DNA from: Rhynchopus sp. YZ270_cl-10
Lineage: Eukaryota
Length of the DNA stretch: 64,000 nt
Direction of reading: 5' to 3'
Assembly: GCA_964035575.1 (NCBI GenBank)
Contig: OZ037836.1
Coordinates: 1,364,001-1,428,000, forward strand
This document shows, piece after piece, positions 4,432 through 31,817 of the stretch. The translations under genes were made by a program, and so were the position numbers. The notes under the pieces were generated by a model, which was not told the origin of the DNA, did not search any database, and saw only the letters and a list, made by a program, of their open reading frames with translations. The first letter of the stretch is position 1. Every line of letters starts with the position of its first letter.

Positions 4432-4458
4432 CTGTGGGGAGGGGGGATGGGTGATCAT

Positions 4459-8465: not shown

Positions 8466-9908
8466 AACAGAGTTTTATTTTTATATGACGATTCTCGTAT
8501 ATTCAAAAAAAAAATGTATGTTTGTGGCAAAGCTTGTATCCCGCTGTGTCATACCAGATGCGATGCATCACGGCGGAACTGGTCCGGCAGCTCATCCTCA
8601 CCCATGACACGTCCTCCCTCCACTATAAACGTCGACGTGGAACTGCTTTCCTGCATCTGTTGCTTCCATGTGTCCATCTTACACCACCCTCTTCACCCTC
8701 TTTTCTTCCTTTTCTGATTCTGAATCTGCTCCAAGCACCAACGGGAAACACGCCTTCGCAAAAAATGGTGTATCAATTCTCCCTCTCAGCAGAACACCGT
8801 CTATGAGAAAAGAAGCGTGACGGGAGGGGGTGAGAAAAGGCGGAGGTGGGGGACAGCCTTTTGTTGGAAACCGTCATCACACCTCTTCGTGCAAGCTACC
8901 AAGAAGACAGTGAAAGACCACGTGGTGTTAACGAGTTCAGTGATAATAAATTGCAGAAAAAGGGGGGGTTGGGACGGGAGGTACATTGTAATGAATAAGA
9001 CATGGGTTTTTGTGGGGATTCTTTTGCAGCACAGAGTAAAATAACACAATGTGTGGAACGTCTTGCTCAGCACAGCTCTCCTCTCGCACCAAGTAGTAGT
9101 CTGTGCCACGGTGAGCAAGACTGTGCCCCTCTTCTTCTCCGAACCAGAGGACGCAAGCAGACATACTGCCAGAGACCCTCCACCTCGGGGAGGTGCTGCC
9201 CTCCTGCAGTTCGCAGCAAAATACGAACATCTAGAACCGCAACTAAAATGCGTCGCATTCCTGAGTGGTGATAAACCCAAGGTCGTTAAGCTGCTGCAGT
9301 TCGAAAGGAACCACCCACCAACCTGCCTCACGTTGTTGAGTGCAGATAAATCGATGTTGGTTAAGCTCGTACAGCCGGTAAGAAAGTGGTTATCAATCTG
9401 CGTCACGTTGTTGAATGGTGATAAATCCAGGGTTGTTAAGCTGCTGCAGTTATGAAGGAACTCTGTGCCAACGTGCGTAACGTTGCTGAGTGGTGATAAA
9501 TCAACTGCAGTTAATCTCACGCATCCATAAAGAAAGCTGTTACCAACCTGCGTCACATTGCTGAGTGGCGACAAATCCAGGGTCGTTAAGCTGAAGCAGT
9601 TCTGAAGGAAGCACTCACTCACCTGCGTCACATTGCTCAGCCCAGAGAGATCAATACTTGTCAACGAGCGGCAGCAAGCCAGGAAGCTGTGACCAATGTG
9701 AGTCACAGTGGACACAGCACTGAGATCAAGTCTCGTCAACGAAGTGCGCGACAAGAAGTAATTCGGAATGACAGTCGCAACCTCCGCCTGCAGAAGCAAA
9801 CACGCCACCTCAGGATCCTCCACACTCTTCAACTTCTCGGCTGTGATGTCGGTCACACCCAACGCATGAAGCTCTGCAATGGCTTCGTACTTCTGCGTCT
9901 TCGTGAGG

Positions 9909-11560
9909 TAGGGGTCCGTTTTAGGTCTCTGGCAGGCCGGGCCTTCTTTCTGTGGCCTTCCCAACCAAAAGACCCCCAAAAAACACAGGTACCTGCTGCG
10001 TTTAATGGCACTTTACCCCAGTCCCTGGAACAGATCGGCAAGCCGACCAGCCCAGGTATGCATGCCAACACTACTGGGGGTGCACTGTTCGATAGCATAA
10101 AAGAAAAGTCAAAAAGTCAAAAAGACAAGAAGGTCAAACAAAATAGGTACTTCGAACAGGGCTGACAGGAGGGGATTCTCACCCGAGGTTCGGTGCCTGT
10201 CAGGCTGCGATTAGTGGTTCTGGGTGATTCCCTTCTTCCTAGCCACCGTTACCGCGTTGCCCGCACCGTAAGAGAGTGGGGACGGTTCACGACCGTTCGT
10301 ACGCGTCAGCAAAAGTAGGGGTCGGAGTCCAGGCCCGAACCGGAAACATTAACCTCCGTTTTTCGAAACATTAAAAAGTAAAAATGAAAAAGAAAAATCA
10401 ACAGCAAGAGCAGTGTTGCTGTAAAAGAAACAGCAGCACCGTCAGCTAACATGTCCACACAATATGGCAGACGGCCACACAAAATTCCCCTGATTTGTAC
10501 AGAGAAAGTTGTAACTTCTTCCTTACAAGTAAGGGAGTGCCGGCAGGGAAGGAGTTACAACAAACAGTGAACAAACTCAAGTACCAGCCTTTCCGCGTAG
10601 CACGGACCCTACATTTGGTAGTTGGTCTGCCCTACTGCCTCATCTGCACCGTAGCTGGACGCCACGGCGACAACTCCTTCATCTTCAACGTACCAAAGCA
10701 CGTGAAAATAGAACAAAAACAAACACATTGGAAAACAACAGAGCATGTACCTGCAGATCCACAGTTGTTTCACGTACAGTGCATACACCCTGAAAGCTTA
10801 ACCTCTTCCTTCTAGCACAGACGTTGGTCTGCCCTACTACTTCTTCTGCACCGTAGCTGAATGCCACGGCGACAACTTGTACCCACCTGCGAATGAATGT
10901 TCGCAGATCCCTTCTTCTACTAACGTATAAAAAACGTAAAAACAGACCAAAAACTACAACATGCCACACTGAATTAACGACAGAGCACGCACCTGCAGAT
11001 CCACAGATGTTTCACTACGGTGTACACAGCCTGAGGTTAAACACATAACACAAGAATTCTACTACGGCAAAAAGATGAAAACTGAACTGAACTGAACAAA
11101 ACTACAACACACCACACTGAATACACAAGAGCACGTACCTGCTGATCCACAGTTGTTTCACATACAGTGTACGCACCAACAAAGCAACACAACGTTCCCA
11201 TGCGGTCAAACGACAACACAGGAACAGCAACAATATTCCGTCACCAGTAGAGACACCGGCAACGCTTCCTTCTTGTACCTGGGATCCCCTCATCGGCATC
11301 AACACACTCCCAGTCACCGCACAGGTAACAGATCCTTGAAACCCCTCCGAAGGGGTTTGCGTAGCCTACATAAGCTGGTGATCTGCCCGAAATTGACTGT
11401 GATGTTGTATTAATAACCAGGGTTCCCACATCGGCTTGTTCCTCCTCCGGTCCCGAGCGAATCCATCATTGGAGAGGCGGCCGCCCACGCTGACTCAGTA
11501 CCATGCGAACACGGCGTCCAGGGGACCCACTTGGCGGTTGGTCAGACGTTAATTGCCCCC
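9909..11560 (-). mobile_element. 1652-bp non-coding retroposon-like insertion, family 1 copy 1
   Basis: Flanked by 18-bp TTCTGCGTCTTCGTGAGG (9891-9908, 11561-11578); no TIR or LTR, no long ORF; ~200-bp internal repeats. Confidence 0.85.
11488..11560 (-). ncRNA. Putative HDV-like self-cleaving ribozyme
   Basis: Same fold as 13544-13616, with one substitution (G36U) weakening P1. Confidence 0.55.
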
Positions 11561-11578
11561 TTCTGCGTCTTCGTGAGG

Positions 11579-13617
11579 TAGGGGTCCGTTTTAGGTCTCT
11601 GGCAGGCCGGGCCTTCTTTCTGTGACCTTCCCAACCAAAAGACCCCCAAAAAACACAGGTACCTGCTGCGTTTAATGGCACTTTACCCCAGTCCCTGGAA
11701 CAGATCGGCAAGCCGACCAGCCCAGGTATGCATGCCAACACTACTGGGGGTGCACTGTTCGATAGCATAAAAGAAAAGTCAAAAAGTCAAAAAGACAAGA
11801 AGGTCAAACAAAATAGGTACTTCGAACAGGGCTGACAGGAGGGGATTCTCACCCGAGGTTCGGTGCCTGTCAGGCTGCGATTAGTGGTTCTGGGTGATTC
11901 CCTTCTTCCTAGCCACCGTTACCGCGGTGCCCGCACCGTAAGAGAGTGGGGACGGTTCACGACCGTTCGTACGCGTCAGCAAAAGTAGGGGTCGGAGTCC
12001 AGGCCCGAACCGGAAACATTAACCTCCGTTTTTCGAAACATTAAAAAGTAAAAATGAAAAAGAAAAATCAACAGCAAGAGCAGTGTTGCTGTAAAAGAAA
12101 CAGCAGCACCGTCAGCTAACATGCCACACATTATGGCAGACGGCCACACAAAATTCCCCTGATTTGTACAGAGAAAGTTGTAACTTCTTCCTTACAAGTA
12201 AGGGAGTGCCGGCAGGGAAGGAGTTACAACAAACAGTGAACAAACTCAAGTACCAGCCTTTCCGCGTAGCACAGACCCTACATTTGGTAGTTGGTCTGCC
12301 CTACTGCCTCATCTGCACCGTAGCTGGACGCCACGACGACAACTCCTTCATCTATCAACGTACCAAAGCACGTGAAAATAGAACAAAAACAAACACATTG
12401 GAAAAACAACAGAGCATGTACCTGCAGATCCACAGTTGTTTCACGTACAGTGCATACACCCTGAAAGTTTAACCTCTTCCTTCTAGCACAGACGTTGGTC
12501 TGCCCTACTGCCTCTTCTGCACCGTAGCTGGACGCCACGACGACAACTCCTTCATCTTCAACGTACCAAAGCACGTGAAAATGGAACAAAAACAAACACA
12601 TTGGAAAACAACAGAGCATGTACCTGCAGAGTGCATACACCCTGAAAGTTTAACCTCTTCCTTCTAGCACAGACGTTGGTCTGCCCTACTGCCTCTTCTG
12701 CACCGTAGCTGAATGCCACGGCGACAACTCCTTCATCTATCAACGTACCAAAGCACGTGAAAATAGAACAAAAATAAACACATTGGAAAAACAGCAGAGC
12801 ATGTACCTGCAGATCCACAGTTGTTTCACGTACAGTGCATACACCCTGAAAGTTTAACCTCTTCCTTCTAGCACAGACGTTGGTCTGCCCTACTGCCTCT
12901 TCTGCACCGTAGCTGAATGCCACGGCGACAACTTGTACCCACCTGCGAATGAATGTTCGCAGATCCCTTCTTCTACTAACGTAAAAAAAAACGTAAAAAC
13001 AGACCAAAAACTACAACATGCCACACTGAATTAACGACAGAGCACGCACCTGCAGATCCACAGATGTTTCACTACGGTGTACACAGCCTGAGGTTAAACA
13101 CATAACACAAGAATTCTACTACGGCAAAAAGATGAAAACTGAACTGAACTGAACAAAACTACAACACACCACACTGAATACACAAGAGCACGTACCTGCT
13201 GATCCACAGTTGTTTCACATACAGTGTACGCACCAACAAAGCAACAAAACGTTCCCATGCGGTCAAACGACAACACAGGAACAGCAACAATATTCCGTCA
13301 CCAGTAGAGACACCGGCAACGCTTCCTTCTTGTACCTGGGATCCCCTCATCGGCATCAACACACTCCCAGTCACCGCACAGGTAACAGATCCTTGAAACC
13401 CCTCGAAGGGGTTTGCGTAGCCTACATAAGCTGGTGATCTGCCCGAAATTGACTGTGATGTTGTGTTAATAACCAGGGTTCCCACATCGGCTTGTTCCTC
13501 CTCCGGTCCCGAGCGAATCCATCATTGGAGAGGCGGCCGCCCACGCTGACTCAGTACCATGCGAACACGGCGTCCAGGGGCCCCACTTGGCGGTTGGTCA
13601 GACGTTAATTGCCCCCA
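11579..13617 (-). mobile_element. ~2039-bp non-coding retroposon-like insertion, family 1 copy 2
   Basis: Near-identical to 9909-11560 but with about two extra internal repeat units. Third TSD copy at 13618-13635. One extra base (13617) at the 5' junction. Confidence 0.85.
13544..13616 (-). ncRNA. Putative HDV-like self-cleaving ribozyme
   Basis: Hand fold: P1 GGGGGC/GCCCCU (G1-U wobble); P2 CUGA/UCAG; P3 CCA/UGG with L3 ACCGCCAAG; P1.1 CC/GG; P4 GCCGUG-UUCG-CAUGGU; J4/2 ACUGAG with the candidate catalytic C. Confidence 0.7.
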
Positions 13618-14918
13618 TTCTGCGTCTTCGTGAGGATGATTGTGTCACCAGCACTCAGCTGCGTCATGTCCGCTCCTTCTCCCATCGCTTCGCCTCCGAA
13701 ACTCATGCAAAAGCCGTCTTCAGGCAACCCCATTGCAGTCGCCACCTTCCGCCGCAAGCCCTCCACTGTGTCATCTTCACCCACCTCGACCGCATGCTTC
13801 ACTCCGTTCAACCCCTTGATGGTCAAATCCATATTTGATCTTTGGTTCGATGTTTTCCCTTGTTGTTGTACTGAGGTGATGTTGATGTGGAGAAAGTGTG
13901 GAAAAGAAACAACACAGCACCTCTGCTCTCTATTTGTAACATGGAAGTGTGCGTAAACCCCCAGGGTGAACACAGTCAGATTGCTTCTGTATGTTTTCCT
14001 GCAGTGCCCCACCCCCGGAAAATCGGGTTCAATAGGTGATTAGGACAATGCGAACTGGCGGCAGTGTGGGGTATTTACCAGGCACATAATAACACTTCAC
14101 CCGACCAAAGAGAAGGCGAAGGAACATTCTTTTGGAAAAATAATAGGGGACTGGGGGGAAGCAGAACACTTTTGAAAGATGAACCTGAGCCTCTCGTACT
14201 CAGTCACCTTTAGTCACAACCTTGAAGTCCAAAACAAAATAGGGGAGTCCTGAGGTAAAGGGGGAAAGACGTTTTGAATCATCGACAAAAAAATAAAGAA
14301 AGAAAAGCCCGCGTGCACGGCCCTCCCCCTTCCGCCCTTCAACAAGGTTAGATTCGTTGCCTTCGTTTCAAATAAGAACAGTTTGTCAGGTGAGCCTAAG
14401 CCTCTCGTGCTTAGTCACCTTGAGCACAAACGTTGTCGTATGAAAACAAAGTGTGCACGGACAAGACAAGAAAGGCACCAGTGGGAGGGCAGGGGGGCAT
14501 GAGCTATAGCTACTTGAATGTCGACAACAATTGCCACCTCCCCAAAAAAGGGGTTAGATTTGGGTAAAGAAAGAGCAGTTGAAACTAAAACACAGCTCGG
14601 TCGTGCTCAAGCAAAGGGTGGGTGTGAGTGGTCCGTACCGTAAAAGAACGGAGGCGGTTCACAACCACTCGGAAAAAGGCTAGATTTGTCTCAAAGAAAG
14701 GTTTACAAGATGAACCTGAGCTACGGACTTAGGCATCCATGAAGGTGCGAACCCTGATTGCCTAACACAGGCAGACAGCGCTGAAGAGACATCAGCGACA
14801 TGCAACTCACGAGAGAGAAGACAACAATAACTTTGCACTAGGTAGATAGTGTAAAGTGGTTCTACGTTTTCCTCACTTTTCCAACTTGATAGGTTCGTCT
14901 AGCCGGATAGTTTGTTGT

Positions 14919-14960
<42 letters not shown>

Positions 14961-15504: not shown

Positions 15505-18500
15505 TTACTCACCTTTGCCAAAGTAGGTAACGTTGATCACATATACAACACACACCACAGCGACAAGGCAACGAAACAACACTTCTGCCTTGCCGTGCGT
15601 TGATTGGGTGACATGATGCGCGCACCTTGCCACACACAGGATGGGGTTGTTCGAGAGTGCCGGCCCTGCATAACGCACCGCACCCAGATCTGCGCAGATG
15701 GCAGTGAACACCATGAAGAAGCTGTCCCTCAACTCCGGCACCGCCATCTGCAGGTACATCCCGTTGTGTGCCACACATCGCCGCATGAAGGCTGCGTTCG
15801 CGCAAAGTGCGGAGGGCACCCCCTTCAACAGCCCCTTATGCAAGACAACAGCTTCGTACACGAAATCTGCGTCATGTTGCCACCACTTCCCGACGTGCTG
15901 CAAATTCCCCGCACAACGCATCCCAAGCAACGCAATCTCTCTCTCCGCACGCAATGGGAGCGACGCATACTCAAAGTTCTTCGGGTTCGCTGTCACCGCA
16001 CACCGCACCACGTCTCCGTCGTTGCAGAGGTCCCTTCCCAGGCGCGACAGAATCAGACCCTCAACACTGCACATCGCAAGCACCCGCAGCACCACAGAAC
16101 GATCCTTCCACAGCGCCGCCCCGATGTGTTCCGCATCACACCCTGCGTGCTCCAGGCAGGACAACACAAACTGTTTGTTCTGCCTCAGCTTTTCGCCAGC
16201 AAAGGCAAACGCCCTTGGATCATCCGCAACCGCAGCTAGAACAAGGTGTGCATCCCCCCTCAGCTTTGCGTGCGCCTTCTGCAACGCGAAGTGCCCACCA
16301 TAGACGTGCAGGAGCTTTCGCAACACAGCTCGGTTCTTCCAGAGGTTGGCCTCCATGCGGAAACAGTCTTTTGGAACTGTTGTCATGACGGCTTCAACAA
16401 AGTCTTTCTTTGACAGCAACGATGGGTCCACATGAGCCATGGCCTCGGGGGATATGCCCACCATCTTCAGTGCGAAGGCAGACTCCTGCTTCAGCGCCCT
16501 GCTGGCAAATGCGAAGTTTGCACCGTTTGCTGTGCACGCTGCTGTGACGACGTCAGTATTGCGCCGAAGACGACGCGAAGCGTACTGCAAATTCGCCTTC
16601 GCACTCTTCTCTGTAAACGCAGCGGCAACGATGCTCCGATCATCTGCCAAGGTGGGGGTCACAAACTGCAGGGCATCCGCATTGTTCTTCAACGCTGCCA
16701 GCACCACAGCACGGTTGCCTCTCACCGCGACTCCACCATGCGCCAGAGAGAGCCCACACAGCCCCACAACCTCAAGCATCACATCCACAGACCCCAACAC
16801 CCGACTCCCAGCGTGCTGCAGAACCGACATATCCTTGTTCACAGCCGCCAACACAACCTCGCGGTCGTTCTGTACAACGCCACCAGCGTGCTGCAACCAC
16901 GTGGCCTCCTTGGCAACAGCTTCGAGCATGAACACTCTGTTGTTACGAAGGGATGTGACAGATGGAAATGCCTTCGTCAATGTATGTCTTAATGCGGTCG
17001 TCGCAACTTCTAGATCTGCCTTCAGGGCGTCCGAGGCATGGTCAAAGGTGCTAGGGTGGATTTCAATCGCAGAAAGAACCAAACCTCTGTCAGATCTGGC
17101 ACGAAGCCCTGCATGCGGGAGGGCCGCATGGTTCTGCGTTACCGCAGCCTTCACAACCTCAATGTCGTCTTGGAGCGCCAGACTCACGTTGCGGAGCGCA
17201 TGGCCGTTCTTTGTAACCGCCTTGAGCGCGCATGCTCTGTCCGCTCGTACAGTCTCTCCTGCATACGCAAAACACGACGCATCCGTCTTCAGTGCGCACA
17301 ATGCAATGTCGACGTCATCCTGCAACGCCTCTGAAGCAAACTGCAGAGCCTTCCCCTTCGACTTCACTGCAGCACGCACCACGTCAATATCGTTCCGGAG
17401 ATCGCTGTGTGCATACACCAAGGCAGCTCCACTGCTTGCAACCGCCTCGAGAACAAGGCTCTTCTCCTGACGCAGGCCTGGTGATGCGAACTTCAGCATC
17501 ATCCCGTCATCCTGCACGCAGCGGAGCACCACTTCACGGTCGTCGCGCATTTCATGTGAAAGCTCCTGAAGGAGCGCCCCCTTCCAGGTTCCCTTTGGCT
17601 GTGCGAGGAGGAATGAGCGGTTGTGCAAAATGTCCTTTCCGATGTGCGTGAATCCGTTCTTGCCTGCAGCACGGACGACCTTGGCAGCGATGGTGGGGTT
17701 GTTCTGGAGCCGTGTGCTCGCGTAGGTGATGGCGATGTAGTTGCTCTGCACTGCCGCCAACACAACCTCGTAACAGTCCTGCAACCCACTGTCCGCGTAC
17801 TGCAGGTTCTTCCCATCCAACTTCACAGCCTTCAGCACAATGTCCTCATCCCCCTTCACCGAGGCCGGCGCTGCCTCCAAATTCCCCATTCCTTTTTCGA
17901 GTGCGAGACGATACACCTCTGGGTCCCCTTGCAGCTGTTTTGAGACGTGCACGAGAGCACCACCATGCCTCAATGCCTCGAGGACAAATGGTTTCGATGC
18001 ACGAAGCGCGGAACCACAGTGTTCAAAATTCACGCCATGCCGTTTTATGGCGGCAGCACAGACGTCTTTGTCCTTCCTGAGCGAGGCGGCGACGTGTTCA
18101 AAGCTGTAGTAGGAGTTTGCAACGACTGCGAGCACAAAGGCTTTGTCCCCCCTGAGGCGTGGGGAGACGTGCTTCATCATGACACCATGGCGGCATACTG
18201 CTCTGTACGCAAGGTCGTAGTCGTCGCGTATGGCACTGCTGCAGTATTCCAAAGCAGACGCCTGCGACGATAAGGCTGCACGCGCCACGTCCCAGTCCCC
18301 CTGCAGCGTCGTGTCCACGTAGCGCATGTTGTCCCCCGAAAACGTCACAACCTTCATCACCAAATCCTTGTTCCGTCTCAGCTCTGCAGACGCATACCCC
18401 AAGGTGTACCACCCCTTCGACAGCGCAGCGAGCACCACCTCAGGGTCGTTTTTGAAGCGCTGGTCAACGTGGTCGAGGGCAACCGTGTGGCGGCGGACAG

Positions 18501-19278
18501 CTTCAAGCACGAAGGTGCGGTCTGACCTCAGCGCGTCCGACCCGTACTGCAGATGCGACCCATAGCCCTTTACCGCCTCGAGAACGACTTCGCGGTCGTC
18601 ACGCAGGGCAGGCGAGGCATGGCGCAGGGCCTCCCCGTGTTTCCGGACTGCAGCGAGGACGATGCTGCGGGTGTCGCGCAGTGCTGCGGAAGCGTGCTCC
18701 AGCATGCGTCCGTTGTGATCAACGCAACGCAGCACAGCGCACGCATCGTTCCGCAACACCCCTGCGTTGCCAAACGACAGCGCATTCCCCTGGCTCGCAT
18801 CGACCATCACCTCCGCAAAGTCTCTGTTCCGCCATGCCTCAGGGCTTGCAGCACTCCCCGCGCTTGTGTCCGCCTCCACCGCAGCCCGCATCACAGCTGA
18901 GTCAGTCTGCATCGCAAGCGGCAACTCAGCGTACCGCCTCCACCCAGACGCAACCAACGACAGCGCGCATTCTCTGTTGTGCTGCAGAGCCTCCGGCAGA
19001 GTGCCGTACGCCGCCCCGTCACGCACCTTCTGCACAAAAACCTTTGCAGTTGGGTGAAGCGAGATCATCGACCCGCACACAATCGCGTCAGAGCTCCCCA
19101 ACGGCGCCTCGCTGTCGAAGTCCATCAAGGGTGCCCCATCCAGCTCAAAGTCGACGTGAGCAGGGAGGTACCCGAAGGCAGCAGCTGCACGTGTGCAGAA
19201 GGATTCCACGGTGTCGTACTCATCTATCTCGAGCACCTCTTCGTCGTTGCTGAGGGAGTCGCGGATGAAGACCTCCAT
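15505..19278 (-). CDS. Ubiquitin-like N-terminus + long DUF4116-type repeat array, hydrophobic C-terminal helix (~1257 aa)
   Basis: Likely start MEVFIRDSLSNDEEVLEIDEYDTVESF (Ubl-like); dozens of ~25-aa LRDDREVVLEAVKGYGSHLQYGSDA-type repeats; C-terminal VLFRCLVAVVCVVYVINVTYF. Confidence 0.85.
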   Translation of the reverse strand: MEVFIRDSLSNDEEVLEIDEYDTVESFCTRAAAAFGYLPAHVDFELDGAPLMDFDSEAPLGSSDAIVCGSMISLHPTAKVFVQKVRDGAAYGTLPEALQHNRECALSLVASGWRRYAELPLAMQTDSAVMRAAVEADTSAGSAASPEAWRNRDFAEVMVDASQGNALSFGNAGVLRNDACAVLRCVDHNGRMLEHASAALRDTRSIVLAAVRKHGEALRHASPALRDDREVVLEAVKGYGSHLQYGSDALRSDRTFVLEAVRRHTVALDHVDQRFKNDPEVVLAALSKGWYTLGYASAELRRNKDLVMKVVTFSGDNMRYVDTTLQGDWDVARAALSSQASALEYCSSAIRDDYDLAYRAVCRHGVMMKHVSPRLRGDKAFVLAVVANSYYSFEHVAASLRKDKDVCAAAIKRHGVNFEHCGSALRASKPFVLEALRHGGALVHVSKQLQGDPEVYRLALEKGMGNLEAAPASVKGDEDIVLKAVKLDGKNLQYADSGLQDCYEVVLAAVQSNYIAITYASTRLQNNPTIAAKVVRAAGKNGFTHIGKDILHNRSFLLAQPKGTWKGALLQELSHEMRDDREVVLRCVQDDGMMLKFASPGLRQEKSLVLEAVASSGAALVYAHSDLRNDIDVVRAAVKSKGKALQFASEALQDDVDIALCALKTDASCFAYAGETVRADRACALKAVTKNGHALRNVSLALQDDIEVVKAAVTQNHAALPHAGLRARSDRGLVLSAIEIHPSTFDHASDALKADLEVATTALRHTLTKAFPSVTSLRNNRVFMLEAVAKEATWLQHAGGVVQNDREVVLAAVNKDMSVLQHAGSRVLGSVDVMLEVVGLCGLSLAHGGVAVRGNRAVVLAALKNNADALQFVTPTLADDRSIVAAAFTEKSAKANLQYASRRLRRNTDVVTAACTANGANFAFASRALKQESAFALKMVGISPEAMAHVDPSLLSKKDFVEAVMTTVPKDCFRMEANLWKNRAVLRKLLHVYGGHFALQKAHAKLRGDAHLVLAAVADDPRAFAFAGEKLRQNKQFVLSCLEHAGCDAEHIGAALWKDRSVVLRVLAMCSVEGLILSRLGRDLCNDGDVVRCAVTANPKNFEYASLPLRAEREIALLGMRCAGNLQHVGKWWQHDADFVYEAVVLHKGLLKGVPSALCANAAFMRRCVAHNGMYLQMAVPELRDSFFMVFTAICADLGAVRYAGPALSNNPILCVARCAHHVTQSTHGKAEVLFRCLVAVVCVVYVINVTYFGKGE

Positions 19279-20455
19279 CGTGAAGAGGGTGAGGGTGGGG
19301 TAGGGAGAAGGAGAAGGGTGGTGGTGGAGAGAGGTTCTGTGTTGCCGTGTGGTCAGGTCGTGTTCAAACGTAAAGTAACAAAAATTGTGCATTTGTGTGC
19401 GCTGTCTCGTGCAGGCCAAAAACAGCTCATGACCAAGCATGCTGGAAGGAAGTGAGCCATGGTTGTGACTTGCCCACAACTGCTGGCACTGACAGCGACC
19501 ACACAGTGCTGCCACAACACTGTACTAGCTCCCATGAGAGACACTGCGCTGTCTCCACCCACCCCACGCAAGGAAGAACGCCAAAGGTGCTCTCGTGCTG
19601 CAACCACAGACAAGCTGAGGTGCCAGACAAATGCACGAAAGCACCCCACCGCCAGACACAGCTTCCCCTCCCATCATCACCACAAACGATCGAGGGAAGC
19701 GCCACACCCAAACCCCCCCACACTCACAACACTGCGCACCATCCGTACAACACCTGAGACAGGCCAAACAGCGTAGGGCTTACTGTGGCTTTGCCAGGAA
19801 CTTTCGTTTGAGCAAAATATAGAAGTAAAACTTAAGGAACTGGACGATAAATACCAACGAAAGTTCCATTTTATTTCAACATTTTTCAGAAATGTAGCGT
19901 ACCGTGGCTTCGCCATGAACCTTTGGGTGCCATGACCCCGCTCATCTCCCGTATGTTTCAGTTCTTTCGAAATTGCACAGCGATCTGCGTACTCCCTGGC
20001 GTGGCGCACGTTTTTCACTCTGGGTAGGTGGGAAAAGGGTCCAACACATCGGAGACAAAAACAGATTTCTGTATTGGGGTGGTGCGGGGGTTGGTCTTGT
20101 TCACTAACAGTCGGGAAGAACGGTAAAAAAAAAAGTGATGTGCAACATCGAGCAGTGGGAAACATCCACCGGACGTAAAAATATCTTTCAAAAAAAAAAA
20201 GAGCGAACTGAGGAAACAGTAAAATGTAACACAGCAACTGCAGCGGAGTTCACAGTAATCTCGTGAACTCAAGATGGCTGATGGCACTGCAGGGTTGCAT
20301 GCATCCAGTTCTTCCAGGCAGCCACAGGACTGGAAGATAGATGCAACTAAAATAGTAATATAAAAACGTACTTTCTTTCAAGGAGAAACCGAAGAAATGT
20401 AGGGTGAAGACGAAAAGTAAAAATTGAATGAAACAGGCGAGACTGTCAAAACACA

Positions 20456-21652
20456 TCAAGTTTGATCTCCCAAGGCCTCAACTGCAGTCCTCATGACTTG
20501 CACGGCCGCATCAAGAGTGACAAGCTCTTCCTTATCGTTCGGGGCTTGTTCTTCTTGTTCCTCATCATCAGCGTCGGGTTCTTCGACTGCCGGAAATCCG
20601 TGTCTCAGCTTGCATTCAACAGCATATCTGCGTTCGATATCCTGATTCAGTGACAGCAGTGCGAGACGACCATGGCACTCAAGGGAGAGGGCACCTCTGT
20701 TAGCGGATAGCGCACTCTGAAAGGTAGGCGTGTCTCCGTCGTCATTGTGCGTGTCTCCGTCACTTCTGGCTTTCCTCGGGGATTCGTCTCTGCTTCGTTT
20801 CGGACGTGCTTCAACCACAAGCTTACTCAGCTCGCCGTTCCTCACTTCGTTGGACACAACACTGCTGCAGCCGGAAAGGTAAATGCTCGTCAACGAAGTG
20901 CAGTTCGCAGCAAAGTTCGTAGTATTATTCCAAGTCAAACCAATCGACGTCACGTTCCTGAGTGGTGACAAATCCAGGGTGGTTAAGCTGCTGCAGTTCT
21001 GAAGGAACCGCGCACCAACCTGTGTCACGTTGCTGAGTGAAGTTAAATCGACGTTGGTTAAGCTCGCGCAGCCGTAAAGAAAGCTGTCACCCACCTGCCT
21101 CACATTGCTGAAGGGTGATAAATCCAGGGTCGTTAACCTCTTGCAGTTCCAAAGGAAGTCCTCACCAACCCGCGTCACATTGCTCAACCCAGAGAGGTCG
21201 ACACTTGTCAACGAGTCGCAGCCTTCCAGGAACCTGACTCCAATGTGAGTCACAATGGACTCAGCACTGAGATCAAGTCTCGTCAACGAAGTGCGTGCCA
21301 AGAAGTAATTCGGAATGACCGTCGCAACCTCCGCCTGCAGAAGCAAACACGCCACCTCAGGGTCCTCCACACTCTTCAACTTCTTGGCTGTGATGTCGGT
21401 CACACCCAACGCATGAAGCTCTGCAATGGCTTCTTGCTTCTTCGTCTTCGTGAGGATGATTGTGTCACCAGCACTCAACTGCGTCATGTCCGCTCCTTCT
21501 CCCATCGCTTCGTCTCCGAAACTCATGCAAAAGCTGTCTTCAGGCAACCCCATTGCAGACGCCACCTTCCGCCGCAAGTCCTCCACTGTGTCATCCTCAC
21601 CCACCTCGACTGTGTGCTGATTCGTGTCGAAACCCTTGATGTTCACGTCCAT
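20456..21652 (-). CDS. Ubl-LRR paralogue B (398 aa, 5 LRRs, frameshifted and extended C-terminus)
   Basis: MDVNIKGFDTNQHTVEVGEDDTVEDLRRKVA Ubl fold; SLTxLDLSxLSNVTQVGxxFLxxC repeats (BspA/LRR_5-like). Confidence 0.85.
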   Translation of the reverse strand: MDVNIKGFDTNQHTVEVGEDDTVEDLRRKVASAMGLPEDSFCMSFGDEAMGEGADMTQLSAGDTIILTKTKKQEAIAELHALGVTDITAKKLKSVEDPEVACLLLQAEVATVIPNYFLARTSLTRLDLSAESIVTHIGVRFLEGCDSLTSVDLSGLSNVTRVGEDFLWNCKRLTTLDLSPFSNVRQVGDSFLYGCASLTNVDLTSLSNVTQVGARFLQNCSSLTTLDLSPLRNVTSIGLTWNNTTNFAANCTSLTSIYLSGCSSVVSNEVRNGELSKLVVEARPKRSRDESPRKARSDGDTHNDDGDTPTFQSALSANRGALSLECHGRLALLSLNQDIERRYAVECKLRHGFPAVEEPDADDEEQEEQAPNDKEELVTLDAAVQVMRTAVEALGDQT

Positions 21653-23498: not shown

Positions 23499-26400
23499 CA
23501 GAGCCCGCGGACCTCCCCCGAAAATTAATTATGCACCCCCTTCCAACCCCCGTCCCGCCCAAAAAACACAAAAAAAAAAACAAAAAAAAACCTCTCCCGA
23601 GCTTTCCCCGAGGACAAGCCAGAAATACGAAAGGGAGGCTTTTTCTCCTGCTGAAAGTGAAAAAATGACGGGGGGAGGGGGGTCATATGTTCTTTGATGA
23701 TTTTACATTCGGTATACGGGGGGGGTGGTGGTGGGGTTGGGGTTGGGGTAAAAAACTTAGAAAGGCGGATACACTGACGTGACAACATGGTCAGGGATAC
23801 GCAGTGCGCGATTAATTTGGCACCCTGACGCATTCGTGTAAGCGGTATAAAATCGCTTCACTGCTCGCAGACACTGGTTGTGGGACAGACGTTTATCGAA
23901 TCTCTTGACCTCCTTCCCAGGCGCAGAAAACACTCTGCCCTTCCCACGGGCATGCAGAGCAATACGCATGTTCCCGTTCAGGTTGTCGGATGAAAGCAAT
24001 TTCCGCTGATTAGTTTTTATTTGATTCATAGCTGATATGACTCTCTCACATTCAGCGTTGCTCACGGGGAAAACAAGAAAAATTTCAATAATTTCTCTCA
24101 AATGAGGGAAGAGTTTTTTTTTTTTCATTATTTTATAAATGTCAGGCACTGTCGTGTCAGACAAAGTAGAAAACGTGTCTTTGTAAACAATGAACTCCGC
24201 CTTGATACGGGCGAGATCGAAGTCGTAACCTCCATGTGTGCCTGACACCTTTCGGTCCTCAGTGCAGGGGTCGGAGGAGGTGCCACTGTAAAAAAAATCT
24301 GTCACGCCGCTAGTGTACCACGACAACAGGTCGTCTAGCTCTTTTGCCCCAAAAAGTAGTAATTGTGATGTGTCCCTGGGGAAATGTCTAGGGGAAAAAA
24401 TTTTAAATTTAGACAAAAAGGGCACATCACAAATCACGCCCTCAGTCTCTTCAATGAGGCGGGTGAGGTAGGGGGAGGCGACGATTTCGTGGAATGGGTT
24501 AAATTCCAGGTCTTCGTCCAATGCCTCCGCATTTACGTCGGCCAGCACCTCTGGCCACGTGGGGTACACCTGTCCTGATATCGCAGGATTATCACGCAGT
24601 TCGCGGATAGTGTGCAGGTACTGGTCGAACACGTCGACCAGATCAAACACGCTCAGGCTGCGGTCCTGTGGAATGAAATAAAATAAACGATAAAGGGAAT
24701 TGATTTGGGCCATACCTGGAGTGTTGAGACCAACGAGCTGTTGGCATCCTCGACATCTGCAAGCAGATGCACGCTCTTTACCATGGCGGGTTCCATGAGC
24801 TTCGCTGACAGATCAGCGGTCTTTGCTCTAAGGAACCGCACCAGAGGGCGGTACACTGCCGTGATGTTATCCAAACATCTGGCATTCTGGATCCACCGAA
24901 TCTCATGGGGTTCCAGTACCTTGCGTGGCTTGTCGATTCCAACTCCTTTCTGGAACTTCATCCAGTCCGTCACACGAACGCTGCTGGCGTTGAACCAGGA
25001 GTACAGCTTCGACTCCATGGCGATCGCCGCATCCAGGCACGGCACGGCCTTCGTCGCCCCCTTTGGCTTCAGCACAAACTGGTGGCACGTACACCAGAAG
25101 TACTTCGCGTGCAGGTTCATTCTCACGCGTAGCCTCTTCTGCAGCCCCCTCTTTTTCCCAGACATCGACGCTGTCCCATCCAATCCGATAGCAATCATCC
25201 TTTTCGGATTTAAACCAAGGTCGCGTACCGCCCCCAAGAGTACCCTCTCATACTCCTCTGATGTGCCGTTGTTCATGGGGAGCAAGGACAGGAAGCACTC
25301 GCGAACCTCCCCCTCCTCTACGTCGATGTAGCGAACACAAAGAGCACACTCTGCACACTGGGCGATGTCCTTGCTCTCATCGCACATCAAAGACCACCAG
25401 GGAGACTGCTGGATGCACAGTAGCAAGTCCTCCGTCGTAACCATCGACACTGACTCCAGTAATTGGCGAGACTCTGCCGTGCCGAGGTAAGTCGGCGGCT
25501 CAGCTAAATGCCGCTGCAAACTGGCGCACCCCTGCTCCTCAGCCACGTAGATCACGTGCTCTTGCAACTCCTCAATGGCGTGCATACGTCGAGCGTTGTA
25601 GTGCACACACTTGATCAGGCTAATGAGCCCTTCCAGGTTCTTCTCCTTCGTGTTTTCACTCGCCATGTCAAGCTGTGCAGCGATGGAGGAGGTGGGCGCG
25701 GCGGGCTTCTTACTGTTAACCAGGAACTTCGCATGCTCACGTTCAGCAGTAACATGATACTCCGCCTTATGATGCGATTTTATTGCATCAAGTGCAGTGT
25801 TCCAGTTGTTCAGTGGTCTTTTGGAAGTGAACGCGTGCTGAACATTTGTAGGCATCGTTCCCTTCTTCTCCTTCACGAAGAACCACTCGCAGTGCTTGCA
25901 CGTCATCCCAAGTTCGTCCTTGCAGAGCCACTTGAACTGGCTCTCCCACGATTCCTGGTACGTCCGTACTTTTCGCTTCTTCGCTGCACGATTGGAGCTT
26001 GACACATCAGACGCAAGACGAGTACGATCACCTGAACCTGTCGCAGAAGCCGCATCTGGGACGTCGGTCGTAGCATCAACATCTATCTGCATGGCGGTAG
26101 CAACAGGCGCAGTCTCCTCTGTAGTAGCAGCAGGCGCAGTCTCCTCTGTAGTAGCAACAGGCGCAGTCTCCTCTGTAATAGCAACAGGCGCAGTCTCCGT
26201 AGATGTGACGGCAACGGAAGGGGGCTGCAACACAAAGTCGCTCACGGAGGCTTTAACACCTGTAGCTGGCACTTCATCTTCATCTTCGTCATCGTCATCG
26301 CCATCGCCACCGACCTGCATTGCCACGCTGGCGTCAAGTTGTGACATGGCTTCTGTCGCTGATGCAGCCTTCATCTGATCGGCCTTCCTCTTCGCCTGCT

Positions 26401-26812
26401 GCAACATGGCCGGCAGTGACCCCTTCTCCCTCTTTCCCAGCCTTGCCAAAGCTTGCATCCGCTTTGTCGGCCGGCCGGACATTATTATTCTTATTCTTTT
26501 TTGATTTTTCTGTTAAGTATTGTACATGGGAAAGGGATGTCGATGTACAGGCGATTGTCGAAACTACAAAAAACCCCTGCGGGGCTGAGGCTCCCAAACC
26601 CTTTTTCCTTTTTTTTTTTGTATCGACAATCACCTACTGAGGCAGGAAAAATAAAATTTCCCCCTCCCAAACCCCCCTCCCCCCAAAAAAAACACCCAAA
26701 AAAAAAACCCAAAACCCCCGTCCCTGGACGGGGGTCGGGACGGGGGTCGGTTTTTGGAAAATAATTGACCCCCGTCCGGGACGGGGTGAACGGGGGTGTT
26801 CCGCGGACTCTG
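23499..26812 (-). mobile_element. Full-length hAT DNA transposon (3314 bp)
   Basis: 8-bp TSD CCTCCACC (23491-23498, 26813-26820); TIR CAGAGCCCGCGGACCTCCCCCG / CAGAGTCCGCGGAACACCCCCG (19/22). The empty site GAGACCCTCCACCTCGGGG is present in paralogous flanks at ~9172, ~29788 and ~37339. Confidence 0.95.
23757..26482 (-). CDS. hAT transposase (ZNF862/DUF4371-like), 2 exons 26482-24716 and 24665-23757, ~891 aa
   Basis: WESQFKWL...CKHC...H zinc finger, SLMCDES, GLDGT, CTCH, EIRW, and PVSNAECERVISAMNQIKT dimerisation motif. A 50-nt GTATGG...CACAG phase-0 intron joins STLQ|DRSLS in frame. Confidence 0.9.
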
Positions 26813-26876
26813 CCTCCACCTCGGGGAGGTGCTGCCCTCCCACCAACACACCACGCCGTCATTGTGCGTGTCTCCG

Positions 26877-27617
26877 TCACTTCTGGCTTTGCTCGGGGGA
26901 TTCGTCTCTGCTTCGTTTCGGACGTGCTTCAACCACAAGCTTACTCAGCTTGCCGTTCCTCACTTCGTTGGACACAACACTGCTGCAGCCGGAAAGGTAA
27001 ATGCTCGTCAACGAAGTGCAGTTCCCAGCAAAATGCGCACTTCCAAAGAACAAACGAATATGCATCACATTGCTGAGTGGTGATAAATCCAAGGTCCTTA
27101 AACTGCTGCAGTTGTAAATGAAGCCTGCGCCAACCTGCGTCACATTGCTCAACCCAGAGAGGTCCAGACTTGTTAACGAGGTGCAGTCTCTCAGGAAGTA
27201 GTCTTCAATGTGAGTCACAATGGACTCAGCACTGAGATCAAGTCTCGTCAACGAAGTGCGCGACAAGAAGTAATTCGGAATGACAGTCGCAACCTCCGCC
27301 TGCAGAAGCAAACACGCCACCTCAGGATCCATCACGCGCTTCAGCCTCTTGGCTGTGATGTCGGTCACACCCAACGCATGAAGCTCTGCAATGGCTTTTT
27401 GCTTCTTCGTCTTCGTGAGGATGATCGTGTCACCAGCACTCAACTGCGTTATGTCCGCTCCTTCTCCCATCGCTTCGTCTCCGAAACTCATGCAAAAGCT
27501 GTCTTCAGGCAACCCCATTGCAGACGCCACCTTCCGCCGCAAGCCCTCCACTCTGTCATCCTCACCCACCTCGACTGTGTGCTGATTCGTGTCGAAACCC
27601 TTGATGTTCAGGTCCAT
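26877..27617 (-). CDS. Ubl-LRR paralogue C (246 aa, 3 LRRs)
   Basis: Start at MDLNIKGFDTNQ by homology to the paralogues; ends RPKRSRDESPEQSQK. Confidence 0.85.
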   Translation of the reverse strand: MDLNIKGFDTNQHTVEVGEDDRVEGLRRKVASAMGLPEDSFCMSFGDEAMGEGADITQLSAGDTIILTKTKKQKAIAELHALGVTDITAKRLKRVMDPEVACLLLQAEVATVIPNYFLSRTSLTRLDLSAESIVTHIEDYFLRDCTSLTSLDLSGLSNVTQVGAGFIYNCSSLRTLDLSPLSNVMHIRLFFGSAHFAGNCTSLTSIYLSGCSSVVSNEVRNGKLSKLVVEARPKRSRDESPEQSQK

Positions 27618-29028: not shown

Positions 29029-30235
29029 TTGTCTGCTTTTGTGTCGCTCTGTTGTGTGGGGTTGTAGTTGGGGCTGGAGTGGGTCAACATGGTGAAGGAA
29101 AAACAACACCTCACCAAAGCCCTTCCTTTGCAGGCAGACGTACAAATTGAATCATGCAGACAACCCTTGAAGGACGTCATATTGATGTTGCTTTTAAGAC
29201 TTTACGTCTTTTCCTTCTGCAGCATGAAAAGGATTCTGCCAACATTGAGTACAGACCTCTTCTGGGTACTCAGGCCATTGTCGAAGCATCCACAGTCCGC
29301 GAGGTTACTACGACATGCAAGACCAAGACACATTGCAGATGCTCCAAGCACCAACGGGAAACACGCCTTCGCACAAAATTGCGTATCAATTCTCCCTCTC
29401 AGCAGAACACCGTCTATGAGAAAAGAAGCGTGACGGGAGGGGGTGAGAAAAGGTGGAGGTGGGGTACAGCCTTTTGTTGGAAACCGTCATCACACCTCAC
29501 ACCTCTTCGTGCAAGCTACCAAGAAGACAGTGAAAGACCACGTGGTGTCGACGAGTTCAGTGATAATAAATTGCAGAAAAAATGGGGGTTGGGCGGGGAG
29601 GTACGTTGTAATGAATCAGACATGGGTTTTTGTGGGGATTCTTTTCCAGCAGTGAAATAACACAATGTGTGGAACGTCTTGCTCAGCACAGCTCTCCTCT
29701 CGCACCAAGTAGTAGTCTGTGCCACGGTGAGCAAGACTGTGCCCCTCTTCTTCTCCGAACCAGAGGACGCAAGCAGACATACTGCCAGAGACCCTCCACC
29801 TCGGGGAGGTGCTGTCCTGCCACCAACACACCACGTCGTCATTGTGCGTGTCTCCGTCACTTCTGGCTTTGCTCGGGGGATTCGTCTCTGCTTCGTTTCG
29901 GACGTGCTTCAACCACAAGCTTACTCAGCTCGCTGTTCCTCACTTCGTTGGACACAACACTGCTGCAGCCGGAAAGGTAAATGCTCGTCAACGAAGTGCA
30001 GTTCATAGCAAAATGCGCACTTCCAAAGAACAAACGAATTTGCGTCACATTGCTGAATGGCGACAAATCGAGGGTGGTTAAACTGCTGCAGGCCTTCAGG
30101 AAGCCCGCACCCACCTGCGTCACGTTGCTAAATGGTGACAAATCCAGGGTCGTTAAGCTCTCGCAGTACGCAAGGAAGCCCTCACCAACTTGCGTCACAT
30201 TGCTCAACCCAGAGAGGTCGACACTTGTCAACGAG

Positions 30236-30849
30236 ATATTAAACTTGAAAAACGTGATCCACCCCCGCAAAAAGAAAAACCAGCAAAAGGGAAGGATGGC
30301 ACCACGGTGTGCCAGAGAGTGGCTTGATCCCATTTGCTGACTTATACCCAACAAAGAAGCGACACCTAAGTGAACAGGGGCCGTATACCACCGCTGGTGG
30401 CCTAGGTTAGTATATAAGCCAGTTCAAGGTCCGCACTCTGGCAGCGTCAAAAGAAATAAACAACAATAAAACCACCTGTCATTCCAATGGGAGGAACGAA
30501 TGACTGGCATCTCCTAATTCTCTAAACTGCGGTGAGTGGAACACCCAACTGATGCAAACCACTGCCGCAGGTTAGCACCTACAAAAAGCAAAGAAAAGCA
30601 AAGAAAAGAAAAGCAAAAGCTGTGCATGGTCGTAAAGTAGGCGCAGGGTCGCTTAAATCCCTGAGGGCACAAAAAGCCCAGCATACACCTCCTCCAGTTG
30701 CTTTGGACCCTCCAATATCATGTGCCCGGGTTTGCAAAAGTGCAATGCAACCATCCCACGCGTGGCCTTCGTTCACTCAAAAAAGAGATTATATCCGGGG
30801 ACGCCAGGGCAAAAATGCCGGGGGGCTGCCACCTCACGTTTTTGTCCCC
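30236..30849 (-). mobile_element. 614-bp non-coding retroposon-like insertion, family 2
   Basis: Exact 18-bp TSD TCGACACTTGTCAACGAG (30218-30235, 30850-30867); no TIR, no ORF of note. Confidence 0.85.
30762..30849 (-). ncRNA. Putative HDV-like self-cleaving ribozyme
   Basis: Hand fold: P1 GGGGAC/GUCCCC; P2 GUGGC/GCCAC; P3 GCC/GGC directly abutting P1'; L3 CCCC[GGCA-UUUU-UGCC]CU; P1.1 CC/GG; short P4 CUC-U6-GAG; J4/2 CGAA as in genomic HDV. Confidence 0.72.
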
Positions 30850-31817
30850 TCGACACTTGTCAACGAGGTGCAGTGGGCCAGGAAGAAGTCTCCAATGTGA
30901 GTCACAATGGACTCAGCACTGAGATCAAGTCTCGTCAACGAAGTGTGTGACAAGAACCAATCCGGAATGATAGTCGCAACCTCCGCCTGCAGAAACAAAC
31001 ACGCCACCTCAGGATCCTCCACACTCTCCAACTTCTCGGCTGTGATGTCGGTCACACCCAACGCATGAAGCTCTGCAATGGCTTCTTGCTTCTTCGTCTT
31101 CGTGAGGATGATTGTGTCACCAGCACTCAGCTGCGTCATGTCCGCTCCTTCTCCCATCGCTTCGTCTCCGAAACTCATGCAAAAGCTGTCTTCAGGCAAC
31201 CCCATTGCAGACGCCACCTTCCGCCGCAAGCCCTCCACTGTGTCATCTGCACCCACCTCGACTGTGTGCTGATCCAATGGAACGAAGAGACATCATTTTG
31301 AAGTGTGAAGGGTGTGACGGGTATATAATGAGGTGGAACTGTGGTGGTGGGGGTGGGTTGTGCTGTGTCGGGTTGTGCTATTCAAAAAGTTGTGAAATGC
31401 AGGGGGGTTGTTTTCTTGTATTTGAAGTATCGAAGATACTCCGCACTGTGCGGCCTTTGAGACTAACGAACCAATGAAGCGCCCTGCCTCGAAAATGTAA
31501 AAAATGTGAAAAATGCGAAAACCACACCACAAGGTAATAAAAACAGGTAAATTTGTCTACTTAGGTTAGGAAATTCTGGAAAATAGGTACTATTTAGCCG
31601 CATGCGTGCCCAAATGTCCCCTTTTTTCTGCCTTGTATAATACAAGGGTGTATTCGTTCTCCGGTACTCAAACCTCGCCCCAGAAGGAGCAGAACTTATT
31701 TTTTGCCTCATTTCACGTTGTCGTGTATCGCGTCCACCTTGGTCTTTGTGAAGTACTTCTCCTCGCAGGTGTTGAAGGCGTCGAGGACACAAAATTCAAT
31801 TTTGACTGAGAATCATA

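Follow-up and report, generated by a model that had tools for sequence, protein, structure and literature searches.

Predicted HDV-like ribozyme heads on probable tail-less retroposons between 18-bp duplications in Rhynchopus Ubl-LRR genes

Two Ubl-LRR genes in a 64,000-nucleotide stretch of the Rhynchopus sp. YZ270_cl-10 genome (contig OZ037836.1, positions 1,364,001 to 1,428,000; hereafter the window) are interrupted by non-coding DNA, raising the question of what these inserts are and how they came to lie there. The initial annotation read them as non-autonomous parasites of a non-LTR retrotransposon that are headed by HDV-like ribozymes and inserted with an 18-nt staggered cut. Our analysis makes it likely that the inserts, which form two families (A and B), are non-autonomous non-LTR retroposons lying between 18-bp duplications in Ubl-LRR genes, that a predicted 5' HDV-like ribozyme would free their RNA from the host transcript, and that family A is probably placed at one site by a sequence-specific partner.

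Three insertions in Ubl-LRR genes

Family A is represented in the window by two tandem elements on the minus strand, A1 (9909-11560; 1652 bp, non-coding, with its 5' end at 11560) and A2 (11579-13617; 2039 bp), which show 26 differences over ~1860 aligned positions and contain degenerate ~200-bp internal repeats, also on the minus strand, with two marker copies in A1 (10621-11034) and four in A2 (12290-13091). The 18-bp target-site duplication (TSD) of this family, TTCTGCGTCTTCGTGAGG, is present in three exact copies, on the 3' side of A1 (9891-9908), between A1 and A2 (11561-11578) and on the 5' side of A2 (13618-13635); the A1 repeat can also be read as 19 bp, with a C common to 9890 and 11560. 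Element B (30236-30849, minus strand; 614 bp, non-coding) lies within the LRR part of another Ubl-LRR copy, between exact 18-bp copies of TCGACACTTGTCAACGAG at 30218-30235 (3' side) and 30850-30867 (5' side). The positions of these repeats bear out the exact 18-bp TSDs and the coordinates that the initial annotation had given for all three insertions, and its statement that all three lie in sense orientation relative to the Ubl-LRR genes also holds.

The two A elements split their host gene into a 5' (ubiquitin-like) half at 13618-14039 and a 3' (LRR) half at 8801-9908, both on the minus strand, and simple arithmetic places the halves in frame once the element and one TSD are subtracted. An uninterrupted paralog contains both an empty A-type site (21438-21455) and an exact empty B-type site (21198-21215), further empty A-type sites occur at 27403, 28826, 31090 and 37937, and family A is missing from five of the six Ubl-LRR loci listed. 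Because these paralogous sites stand empty, A and B are proven insertions. The very large host family, with 958 homologs, is rearranged and includes mosaic copies; the gene that hosts B lacks its N-terminus, and the one that hosts A is divergent at its 3' end. The genes of the window are intron-less and lie on the same strand, and a hAT transposase is present among them. A homology search with the 681-aa ORF of the window returned only itself, and searches with its hAT and DUF4116 proteins returned distant relatives at best, or unnamed ones.

The inserts combine TSDs with a lack of LTRs and of coding capacity, as non-autonomous non-LTR retroposons do. Consistent with the earlier description, they hold no recognizable ORF: stop-to-stop frames reach at most 150 aa, and no element frame of at least 75 aa attains a Pfam cut-off. 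Their 3' ends, ...GGACCCCTA and ...TTTAATAT, were rightly described as free of poly(A) in all three insertions; such a tail characterizes the ingi/L1Tc clade (NARTc, RIME, SIDER), and ingi-clade TSDs are ~12 bp. Also as first noted, A and B have unrelated bodies (best blastn E 0.15), and a search for a 3' signal common to both found none (p=0.12). The earlier denial of any terminal inverted repeat (TIR) is correct for family A, in which the longest exact inverted repeat is 4 bp (p ~0.85), but not for B, in which a perfect 10-bp inverted repeat, AAAAACGTGA (p=0.0006, 5000 shuffles), had been overlooked. One arm lies at 30248-30257 (plus strand), 12 nt from the 3' end, and its partner lies at 30834-30843; with no TIR in A and a subterminal, unequally placed repeat in B, neither family has the architecture of a MITE-like TIR DNA transposon.

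Predicted HDV-like heads at the 5' junctions

An HDV nested double pseudoknot can be drawn for all three 5' ends with G1 at the junction, as the initial annotation had proposed. The predicted heads, all on the minus strand, occupy 11487-11560 in A1 (predicted catalytic C at 11498), 13543-13616 in A2 (13554, in J4/2 CUGAG) and 30758-30849 in B (30771, in J4/2 CGAAG). In the A2 head, P1 is GGGGGC/GCCCCU (with a G1.U pair), P2 is ACG-CUGA/UCAG-CGU and P3 is CCA/UGG, with a 9-nt L3, P1.1 of CC/GG and a P4 capped by a UUCG loop; in the B head, P1 is GGGGAC/GUCCCC, P2 is ACGU..GUGGC/GCCAC-GCGU and P3 is GCC/GGC, with P1.1 again CC/GG and an 18-nt L3 that includes a GGCA/UGCC hairpin. The P1 3' strand quoted earlier for family A is that of A2, but A1 reads GUCCCCU; the A1 letter at 11525 is absent from all four sequencing runs examined, and A2's letter is present in all four. 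In other family A copies the extra base that precedes G1 in A2 (13617) is lacking. P1 starts at the predicted cleavage site and is 6 bp long in both A2 (G.U) and B (G-C), which lies within the HDV-like range of 6-7 bp given in the consulted parts of PMC3774820 and PMC6326823 and equals the length described as usual in R2 (PMC3774820).

Two motifs common to the A and B heads pair together and extend P2. All five helices, the CC/GG of P1.1 and the CNRAG junction are retained in both heads, although these otherwise align no better than chance (p=0.66). The claim of covarying stems was an overstatement, made from a hand alignment of two sequences that cannot be aligned above chance; because the independent sequences number two, a formal covariation count is unsupportable. 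Also overlooked was that L3 departs from the HDV form in both families. In place of a short L3 with conserved U, C and G and a U.G reverse wobble, family A (ACCGCCAAG) has A and C at the wobble positions, and B has C and G there plus a 12-nt hairpin. The catalytic motif of J4/2 takes the form CNRA, which is all that A (CUGA) matches, and a control descriptor that demands G instead of the catalytic C still picks up both A copies; B (CGAA) matches the narrower CRRA. That narrower form is the one given in the available text of PMC6326823, which terms the U.G reverse wobble crucial. An active R2 ribozyme with deviant L3 spacing is on record in the sources consulted, and some SIDER heads are described as inactive despite adequate folding (PMC4035085, in part).

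A relaxed HDV descriptor (P1, P1.1, P2 and P3, with P4 optional) matched all three heads and, on both strands of the 64 kb, gave only these three matches, each at most 1 nt from an element 5' junction; block shuffles gave a mean of 0.6 matches per 2x54 kb (40 shuffles). Shuffles of the heads themselves matched at the junction in 1 of 5000 cases for A2 and 0 of 5000 for B, p-values that are optimistic since the descriptor had been loosened after inspection of these heads. A strict descriptor (P1 of 7 bp, L3 of 7-8 nt) returned no match, and the covariance-model check envisaged in the initial annotation was negative, with no Rfam HDV-type model matching the heads at E up to 5. Single-strand folding energy fails to distinguish the heads from shuffled sequence, which is unsurprising for a pseudoknot: no head beats its shuffles (z -0.76, 0.30 and 0.93), and the minimum-energy fold of the B head is a competing hairpin (-26.4 kcal/mol). 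A search of public sequences for the shared-head pattern returned seven viral and 109 metagenome matches, which we take as chance; none of the 116 has a P1 partner followed by GG, and none is similar to A, B or the host by blastn, with flanks that may be short at 29 metagenome loci.

Family A at one site of the Ubl-LRR family

Family A was traced in Logan contigs of five sequencing runs (labelled X1, X2, X4 and X6 among them), and family B is represented by its one copy, in the window. The main feature, overlooked in the initial annotation, is the recurrence of family A at one site in the Ubl-LRR family: in all five runs it lies at the same position of Ubl-LRR paralogs, in roughly 20-30 copies by depth, and it looks site-specific. 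Seven of the 17 contig loose ends listed (the best 17 of 21) fall at the TSD border, and all seven are Ubl-LRR flanks, in three upstream variants; family A as a whole is found next to at least three variants of the upstream flank, and its TSD occurs in two forms. Contigs at whole-family depth extend unbranched into the TSD by 4 nt (X1) and 3 nt (X4), and X6 contigs at element depth cover 41 and ~97 nt of host flank and show the site as it is in paralogs (13622 G>T). Internal loose ends at 11706 (X4) and at 11460 and 11493 (X2) were each seen in a single run. The family is young and uniform, with 1.4% divergence between copies and one listed variant of the head across four runs.

One contig, found in X1, X2 and X4 and read from two 30-letter consensus strings, contains ~67 nt of the family A 3' end between two copies of TTCTTTGTCCTCAGGTAG, 18-bp repeats that are identical to the paralog target at 12 of 18 positions (counted by hand; binomial p=2e-4). 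Among the matches listed, off-site copies of this kind may be under-reported because their contigs share only ~30 nt with the element and because X2 and X4 contigs stop exactly at 11560. Family A therefore has a fixed 3' end and a variable or truncated 5' end, as seen in the extra base of A2 and in this 67-nt 3' fragment with its own repeats. Because a 5'-truncated copy has 18-bp repeats of its own and the 5' junctions vary, the orientation of the elements is fixed and target-primed reverse transcription is indicated. These observations strengthen the core of the initial reading, but a single partner for both A and B is doubtful because their targets are unlike (5 of 18 positions identical, by hand).

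Alternative origins, partner and related systems

The elements could be products of target-primed reverse transcription whose head does not cut, either as an HDV-like relic that has decayed or misfolds or as an internal promoter, with the 5' end set by the start of transcription. The non-canonical L3 of both families, the lack of matches to Rfam models and the strict descriptor, and the competing hairpin in B would fit such a head, and Pr77 also acts as a promoter in L1Tc (PMC4035085, in the part consulted); we nevertheless consider it improbable, given the five helices, P1.1 and CNRAG junction kept in two otherwise non-aligning heads, the position of G1 on the junction in three of three cases, and the youth and uniformity of family A. 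There is also a small chance that the spread of family A was passive, through duplication and gene conversion of Ubl-LRR genes interrupted by one or a few insertions, with a partner only loosely selective, as for ingi/RIME in RHS genes. The size and mosaic nature of the host family would favor passive spread, as would the merely relative site specificity described for L1Tc and NARTc in the accessible text of PMC5814959, but the several flank variants, the two TSD forms, the A1-A2 tandem with a TSD in between and the off-site copy at a 12/18 look-alike with the same 18-bp stagger all speak against it; more off-site copies with the TTCTTYGTCYTC motif would do so as well. Duplication of already interrupted genes could account for part of the same-site copies.

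We regard it as very unlikely that the inserts are non-autonomous DNA transposons, or elements moved by a recombinase, with weak subterminal inverted repeats, an unusually long TSD and a fold that arose by chance. The inverted repeat of B, the absence of poly(A) and the hAT transposase in the window agree with that origin, but hAT TSDs are 8 bp, family A has no significant inverted repeat, the fold lies at the junction in three of three insertions, and cut-and-paste would not be expected to leave a one-ended, 5'-truncated copy flanked by a full TSD. Hardly credible is an intron-like nature, in which the inserts would be taken out of mRNA and so be tolerated within coding sequence. The sense orientation, the in-frame TSD length (18 being a multiple of 3) and the ability of B's ends to pair would suit it; against it, neither 5' junction has GT and neither 3' junction has AG, the mRNA would be destroyed by a head that cuts itself, and the host copies are damaged in other ways.

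For ribozyme-headed retroposons, the following course may be envisaged. Host transcription would pass through the element, as the sense orientation suggests, and the head would form P1, P1.1, P2, P3 and P4 and, as the modelled fold predicts, cut 5' of G1. The tail-less 3' end would run into the downstream copy of the target, whose sequence complements that of the nicked primer strand. The TSDs and the truncated copy point to a partner RT-endonuclease that would nick the plus strand after ...GTGAGG, prime cDNA at the element 3' end and cut the other strand 18 nt away, and sloppy joining of the second strand would then yield the extra base of A2 and 5'-truncated copies, both of which are seen. 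A scan of 172 frames in the window revealed no RT, and no autonomous RT element sharing the 3' end was found there. Going only by general traits of each family, we lean slightly toward a partner from a restriction-like-endonuclease (RLE) clade (R2/R4/CRE-like) over one from an APE clade, which we hold to be a reasonable but lesser candidate.

Families A and B resemble R2 SIDEs or NARTc/RIME and are distinguished by a protein-coding target family, 18-bp TSDs and the lack of a tail. In the portion of PMC3414825 consulted, R2 SIDEs and R2/R1 hybrid SIDEs of Drosophila are likewise non-coding, carry a 5' ribozyme, are site-specific in a multicopy gene and have variable 5' junctions, and the hybrids have an R2 ribozyme and TSDs of 14 bp generated by R1. 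R2 SIDEs have R2-derived ends and insert into 28S rDNA, whereas A and B lie in Ubl-LRR coding sequence, with 18-bp TSDs, a non-canonical L3 and no known parent LINE. NARTc, RIME and SIDER, with L1Tc and ingi, share a short 5' HDV-like head that cuts at +1 (predicted here) and non-coding derivatives (PMC4035085), and copies lie in tandem and in sense at a single hot spot in the protein-coding RHS multigene family (PMC7563717, PMC5814959); according to the same partial sources, ingi-clade elements differ from the tail-less A and B, with their 18-bp TSDs, in having a poly(A) tail and only relative specificity (PMC12278014, PMC5814959), and one set of L1Tc copies is described with TSDs of 9 nt. 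CRE, SLACS and CZAR are similar in their strict specificity for a multicopy gene, their TSDs and their internal repeat regions (compare the ~200-bp repeats of A), but their targets are spliced-leader RNA genes, they code for RT-RLE and they usually terminate in poly(A), features that A and B lack, and no ribozyme is mentioned in the part of PMC12278014 consulted. TcTREZO of T. cruzi, compared by description only, is classed as a non-LTR element with site specificity, found mostly in MASP pseudogenes of a protein-coding multigene family, but it is a composite of genomic pieces with no ribozyme mentioned in the available text (PMC5814959). Utopia shows RLE-type sequence specificity, 20-bp TSDs (reptile families) and off-site copies at look-alikes, but it is autonomous and targets the U2 snRNA gene, and the word ribozyme is absent from PMC4640811 as consulted. 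The literature examined, mostly outside subscription journals, figures and supplements, held no recognized description of the present system, and the drawings of PMC4035085 and PMC3774820 could hold such L3 variants.

A bolder and more tentative reading, which we think rather unlikely, is that of a tail-less, truly sequence-specific system with a protein-coding multigene family as its safe haven, in which two passenger RNAs of unrelated sequence, both carrying an active HDV ribozyme that lacks a canonical L3 (one with an L3 hairpin), are put into two fixed Ubl-LRR sites with an 18-nt stagger. In tandem arrays, the ribozyme of the next copy would trim the 3' end so that 18 nt of target remain after the element, and this tail would pair with the nicked primer strand and aid the choice of site.

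The two heads, of 74-92 nt, offer a cheap assay of whether the U.G pair in L3 is essential to HDV-like ribozymes and whether a hairpin can be accommodated there. If our reading is correct, the partner would add a new sequence-specific RT-endonuclease, one that staggers its cuts by 18 nt, to the class of enzymes employed in RNA-templated gene insertion. In the parts of the literature examined, strictly site-specific non-LTR elements are reported in rRNA, snRNA and spliced-leader genes, and the known protein-coding hot spots of trypanosomes, RHS and MASP, involve looser specificity. LRR-family members are knocked out by the insertions described here, and the known target range of these elements would broaden if a tail-less, ribozyme-headed family proves to be site-specific for a coding multigene family.

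Insertions in the Ubl-LRR genes and their surroundings

Genes in the window are intron-less and, across 3-38 kb, lie mostly on the minus strand. Six loci belong to the Ubl-LRR (ubiquitin-like plus leucine-rich-repeat) family; of the sequences scored as candidates for this family, 958 are homologs at E<=0.001. One of the six loci is interrupted, in the arrangement TSD-A1-TSD-A2-TSD, by tandem copies of family A (A1, 9909..11560; A2, 11579..13617; both minus strand), and a second, as TSD-B-TSD, by the 614-bp element B (30236..30849, minus strand), the one copy from which family B is known. As the initial annotation had claimed, the TSDs are exact 18-mers in all five repeats. The A site is empty in five of the six Ubl-LRR loci and the B site has an exact empty form in one, and these empty sites in paralogous loci identify A and B as true insertions; for both, subtracting the element and one TSD leaves the host halves in frame. 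A Lys/Ala-rich repetitive ORF, which we take to be histone-H1-like, occurs in two minus-strand copies (2516-4446 and 31275-33203) without a match in a Pfam search; the latter copy adjoins B's host gene and truncates the 5' end of that gene.

Over about 1860 aligned positions, A1 and A2 show 26 differences, and they contain two and four internal ~200-bp repeats, respectively; given these differences in letters and repeat number, the pair is not a perfect assembly duplicate, although the two may be alleles placed in tandem. Loose ends internal to family A appear in runs X4 and X2 (public sequencing runs, compared as assembled contigs) at 11706, 11460 and 11493, in one run each. A and B have neither body sequence nor 3' signal in common, both lack poly(A), and none of their reading frames attains a Pfam cut-off, in agreement with the earlier description of unrelated bodies with no tail and no ORF. 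The further claim that terminal inverted repeats are absent holds for A and needs correcting for B, in which a perfect 10-bp subterminal inverted repeat links junction J1/2 of the predicted 5' ribozyme fold to a stretch 12 nt from the 3' end (p=0.0006) and could pair both ends of the B RNA. This repeat is absent from the window's A copies; family A also has a variant 3' terminus in two contigs of run X1 (row at 11594); this variant carries a B-like repeat motif at the same offset, as judged by eye only, and suggests a second A subfamily. Since the B target resembles that of A at just 5/18 positions (compared by hand), B may use a different partner.

Elsewhere, the window holds a 38-bp satellite (40208-49921) whose two blocks total about 254 copies at 94-95% matches, a perfect inverted repeat of 542 bp spaced by 42 nt (56869-57994) that reflects either a fold-back element or faulty assembly, and 34 copies of CCTGGGTA (1854-2121) within a region (3-2392) flanked by 73-bp perfect inverted repeats (3-75 and 2320-2392). 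Dispersed over the window, in either orientation, are members of a non-coding repeat family (4776-5765, 19778-19937, 34288-34682, 54375-54905, 60421-60605 and 62382-63017), possibly transposon ends. The hAT-type transposase (23757-26512, minus strand) spans two overlapping frames, the second with the dimerisation domain, and has one relative at 42% identity and others at <=32% among the matches listed. An intron-less DUF4116 protein of 17 repeats and about 1260-1300 aa (15505-19524, minus strand) has a 91% identical relative on another contig, and an orphan 678-aa protein (50632-52677, plus strand) has a weak myosin-TH1 match below cut-off, its homolog search returning only itself.

Recurrence of family A at one site

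Family A recurs at one site of Ubl-LRR genes. Parts of window 9400-14200 are present in ten runs of six studies, none recorded as RNA, and six runs were compared: X1, X4, X6 and X9 in one set, with results from the listed rows (388 further rows exist), and X1, X4, X2 and X7 for the tandem junction. In X1, element contigs have depths of 2300-2750 versus 97-118 in apparently unique contigs, or roughly 20-30 copies, depth being no strict copy number. At the tandem junction, 7 of the 17 loose-end rows examined (of 21) lie at TSD borders; all seven lead into Ubl-LRR flanks, of which three upstream variants occur. None of these 17 rows exits from an A terminus into unrelated DNA, a count in which off-site copies may be under-represented, as their contigs would have just about 30 nt in common with the element. 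Contigs at whole-family depth enter the TSD unbranched for 4 nt (X1, and X7 at low depth) or 3 nt (X4), and contigs of X2 and X4 stop exactly at 11560. In X6, A occupies the paralog form of the site, and the element there lacks A2's extra base.

One 485-nt contig (depth 97; six rows in X1, X2 and X4) matches 11591-11646 only, and in it the 18-mer TTCTTTGTCCTCAGGTAG flanks a stretch of A's 3' end, about 67 nt long, on either side, with microhomology at both junctions permitting a repeat length of 15-19 bp. By hand comparison, TTCTTTGTCCTCAGGTAG is identical to the usual empty site at 12/18 positions (binomial p=2e-4) and to the window's TSD at 11/18. Judged from its sequence, this copy, with its 3' end kept, 5' end lost, full TSD and look-alike site, is what a sequence-specific enzyme working by target-primed reverse transcription would be expected to leave behind. 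The same copy shows, without recourse to the fold, which way A is oriented: the head is the 5' end.

The predicted HDV-like heads

The initial annotation had folded both heads as HDV ribozymes and proposed a covariance-model check; an Rfam search gave no match at the A and B heads, and a strict descriptor likewise gave 0 matches. A relaxed descriptor, loosened to admit these heads (P1 6-7 bp, P3 3 bp, L3 6-20 nt with CC, 0-1 nt before P1', GG, CNRA and P2 >=4 bp), matched three times on both window strands, at 30849, 13616 and 11561. In all three matches, G1, the first base 3' of the predicted cut, falls on the element/TSD junction or one base outside, as had been predicted. Dinucleotide shuffles in 1-kb blocks (n=40, 2x54 kb each) averaged 0.6 matches, and shuffled heads gave a junction match in 1/5000 (A2) and 0/5000 (B). 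The AACGT and GCGTGGG motifs noted earlier in both heads pair with each other, extending P2, and this helix is present in A's minimum-energy fold; J4/2 is CNRAG in both families. Position 11525 is C in 4/4 runs, making the common P1 GGGGGC/GCCCCU, with a G1.U pair.

Several features of these models count against activity. Both families lack the L3 U.G reverse wobble, which PMC6326823 terms crucial; one R2 that had lost it no longer cleaved (PMC3774820). B's 18-nt L3 contains a hairpin, the lowest-energy structure computed for B is a competing hairpin, and a control descriptor with G for the catalytic C still matches A. On the side of activity, R2 ribozymes with a 6-bp P1 and deviant L3 spacing are known (PMC3774820), and earlier screening rules have been described as too restrictive (PMC4035085).

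Proposed mechanism and relation to known elements

In the most likely mechanism, transcription would read through the host gene and the element RNA would cut itself at G1, its tail-less 3' end continuing into the downstream target copy, with a presumed role for this tail. A putative partner protein would nick the plus strand after ...GTGAGG, cDNA would be made starting at the element 3' end, the second cut would fall 18 nt from the first, and 5' joining would be imprecise. Of this scheme, the TSDs, the empty sites, the element's orientation, its return to one site and its truncation are established, while transcription, cleavage, the partner and the part played by the tail are inferred. Cuts at both heads of the A1-A2 tandem would free an element plus 18 nt of target, much as L1TcRz has been proposed to split tandem copies (PMC5814959). 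A scan of 172 frames from the window yielded no reverse transcriptase, and 0/116 matches to the head pattern in public collections were relatives.

A and B appear to work like R2 SIDE (PMC3414825) or like RIME/NARTc in RHS genes (PMC7563717, PMC4035085), but fall outside both because their target is not rDNA, where R2 SIDE sits, and because, unlike RIME/NARTc, they have no poly(A). CRE-clade elements, as described in PMC12278014, resemble them in strict specificity and in having internal repeats, but insert into spliced-leader genes. Among RLE elements, long TSDs are known, those of reptile Utopia measuring 20 bp (PMC4640811). In a literature search we recognised no description of the same combination of features. 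A and B are likely to be genuine and young retroposons without coding capacity, a variation on an already known type. Ribozyme-headed passengers are already well known, and here cleavage is predicted and the partner putative; what is noteworthy is the evidence of site specificity within a coding gene family, together with two non-canonical ribozyme cores that are easily testable.
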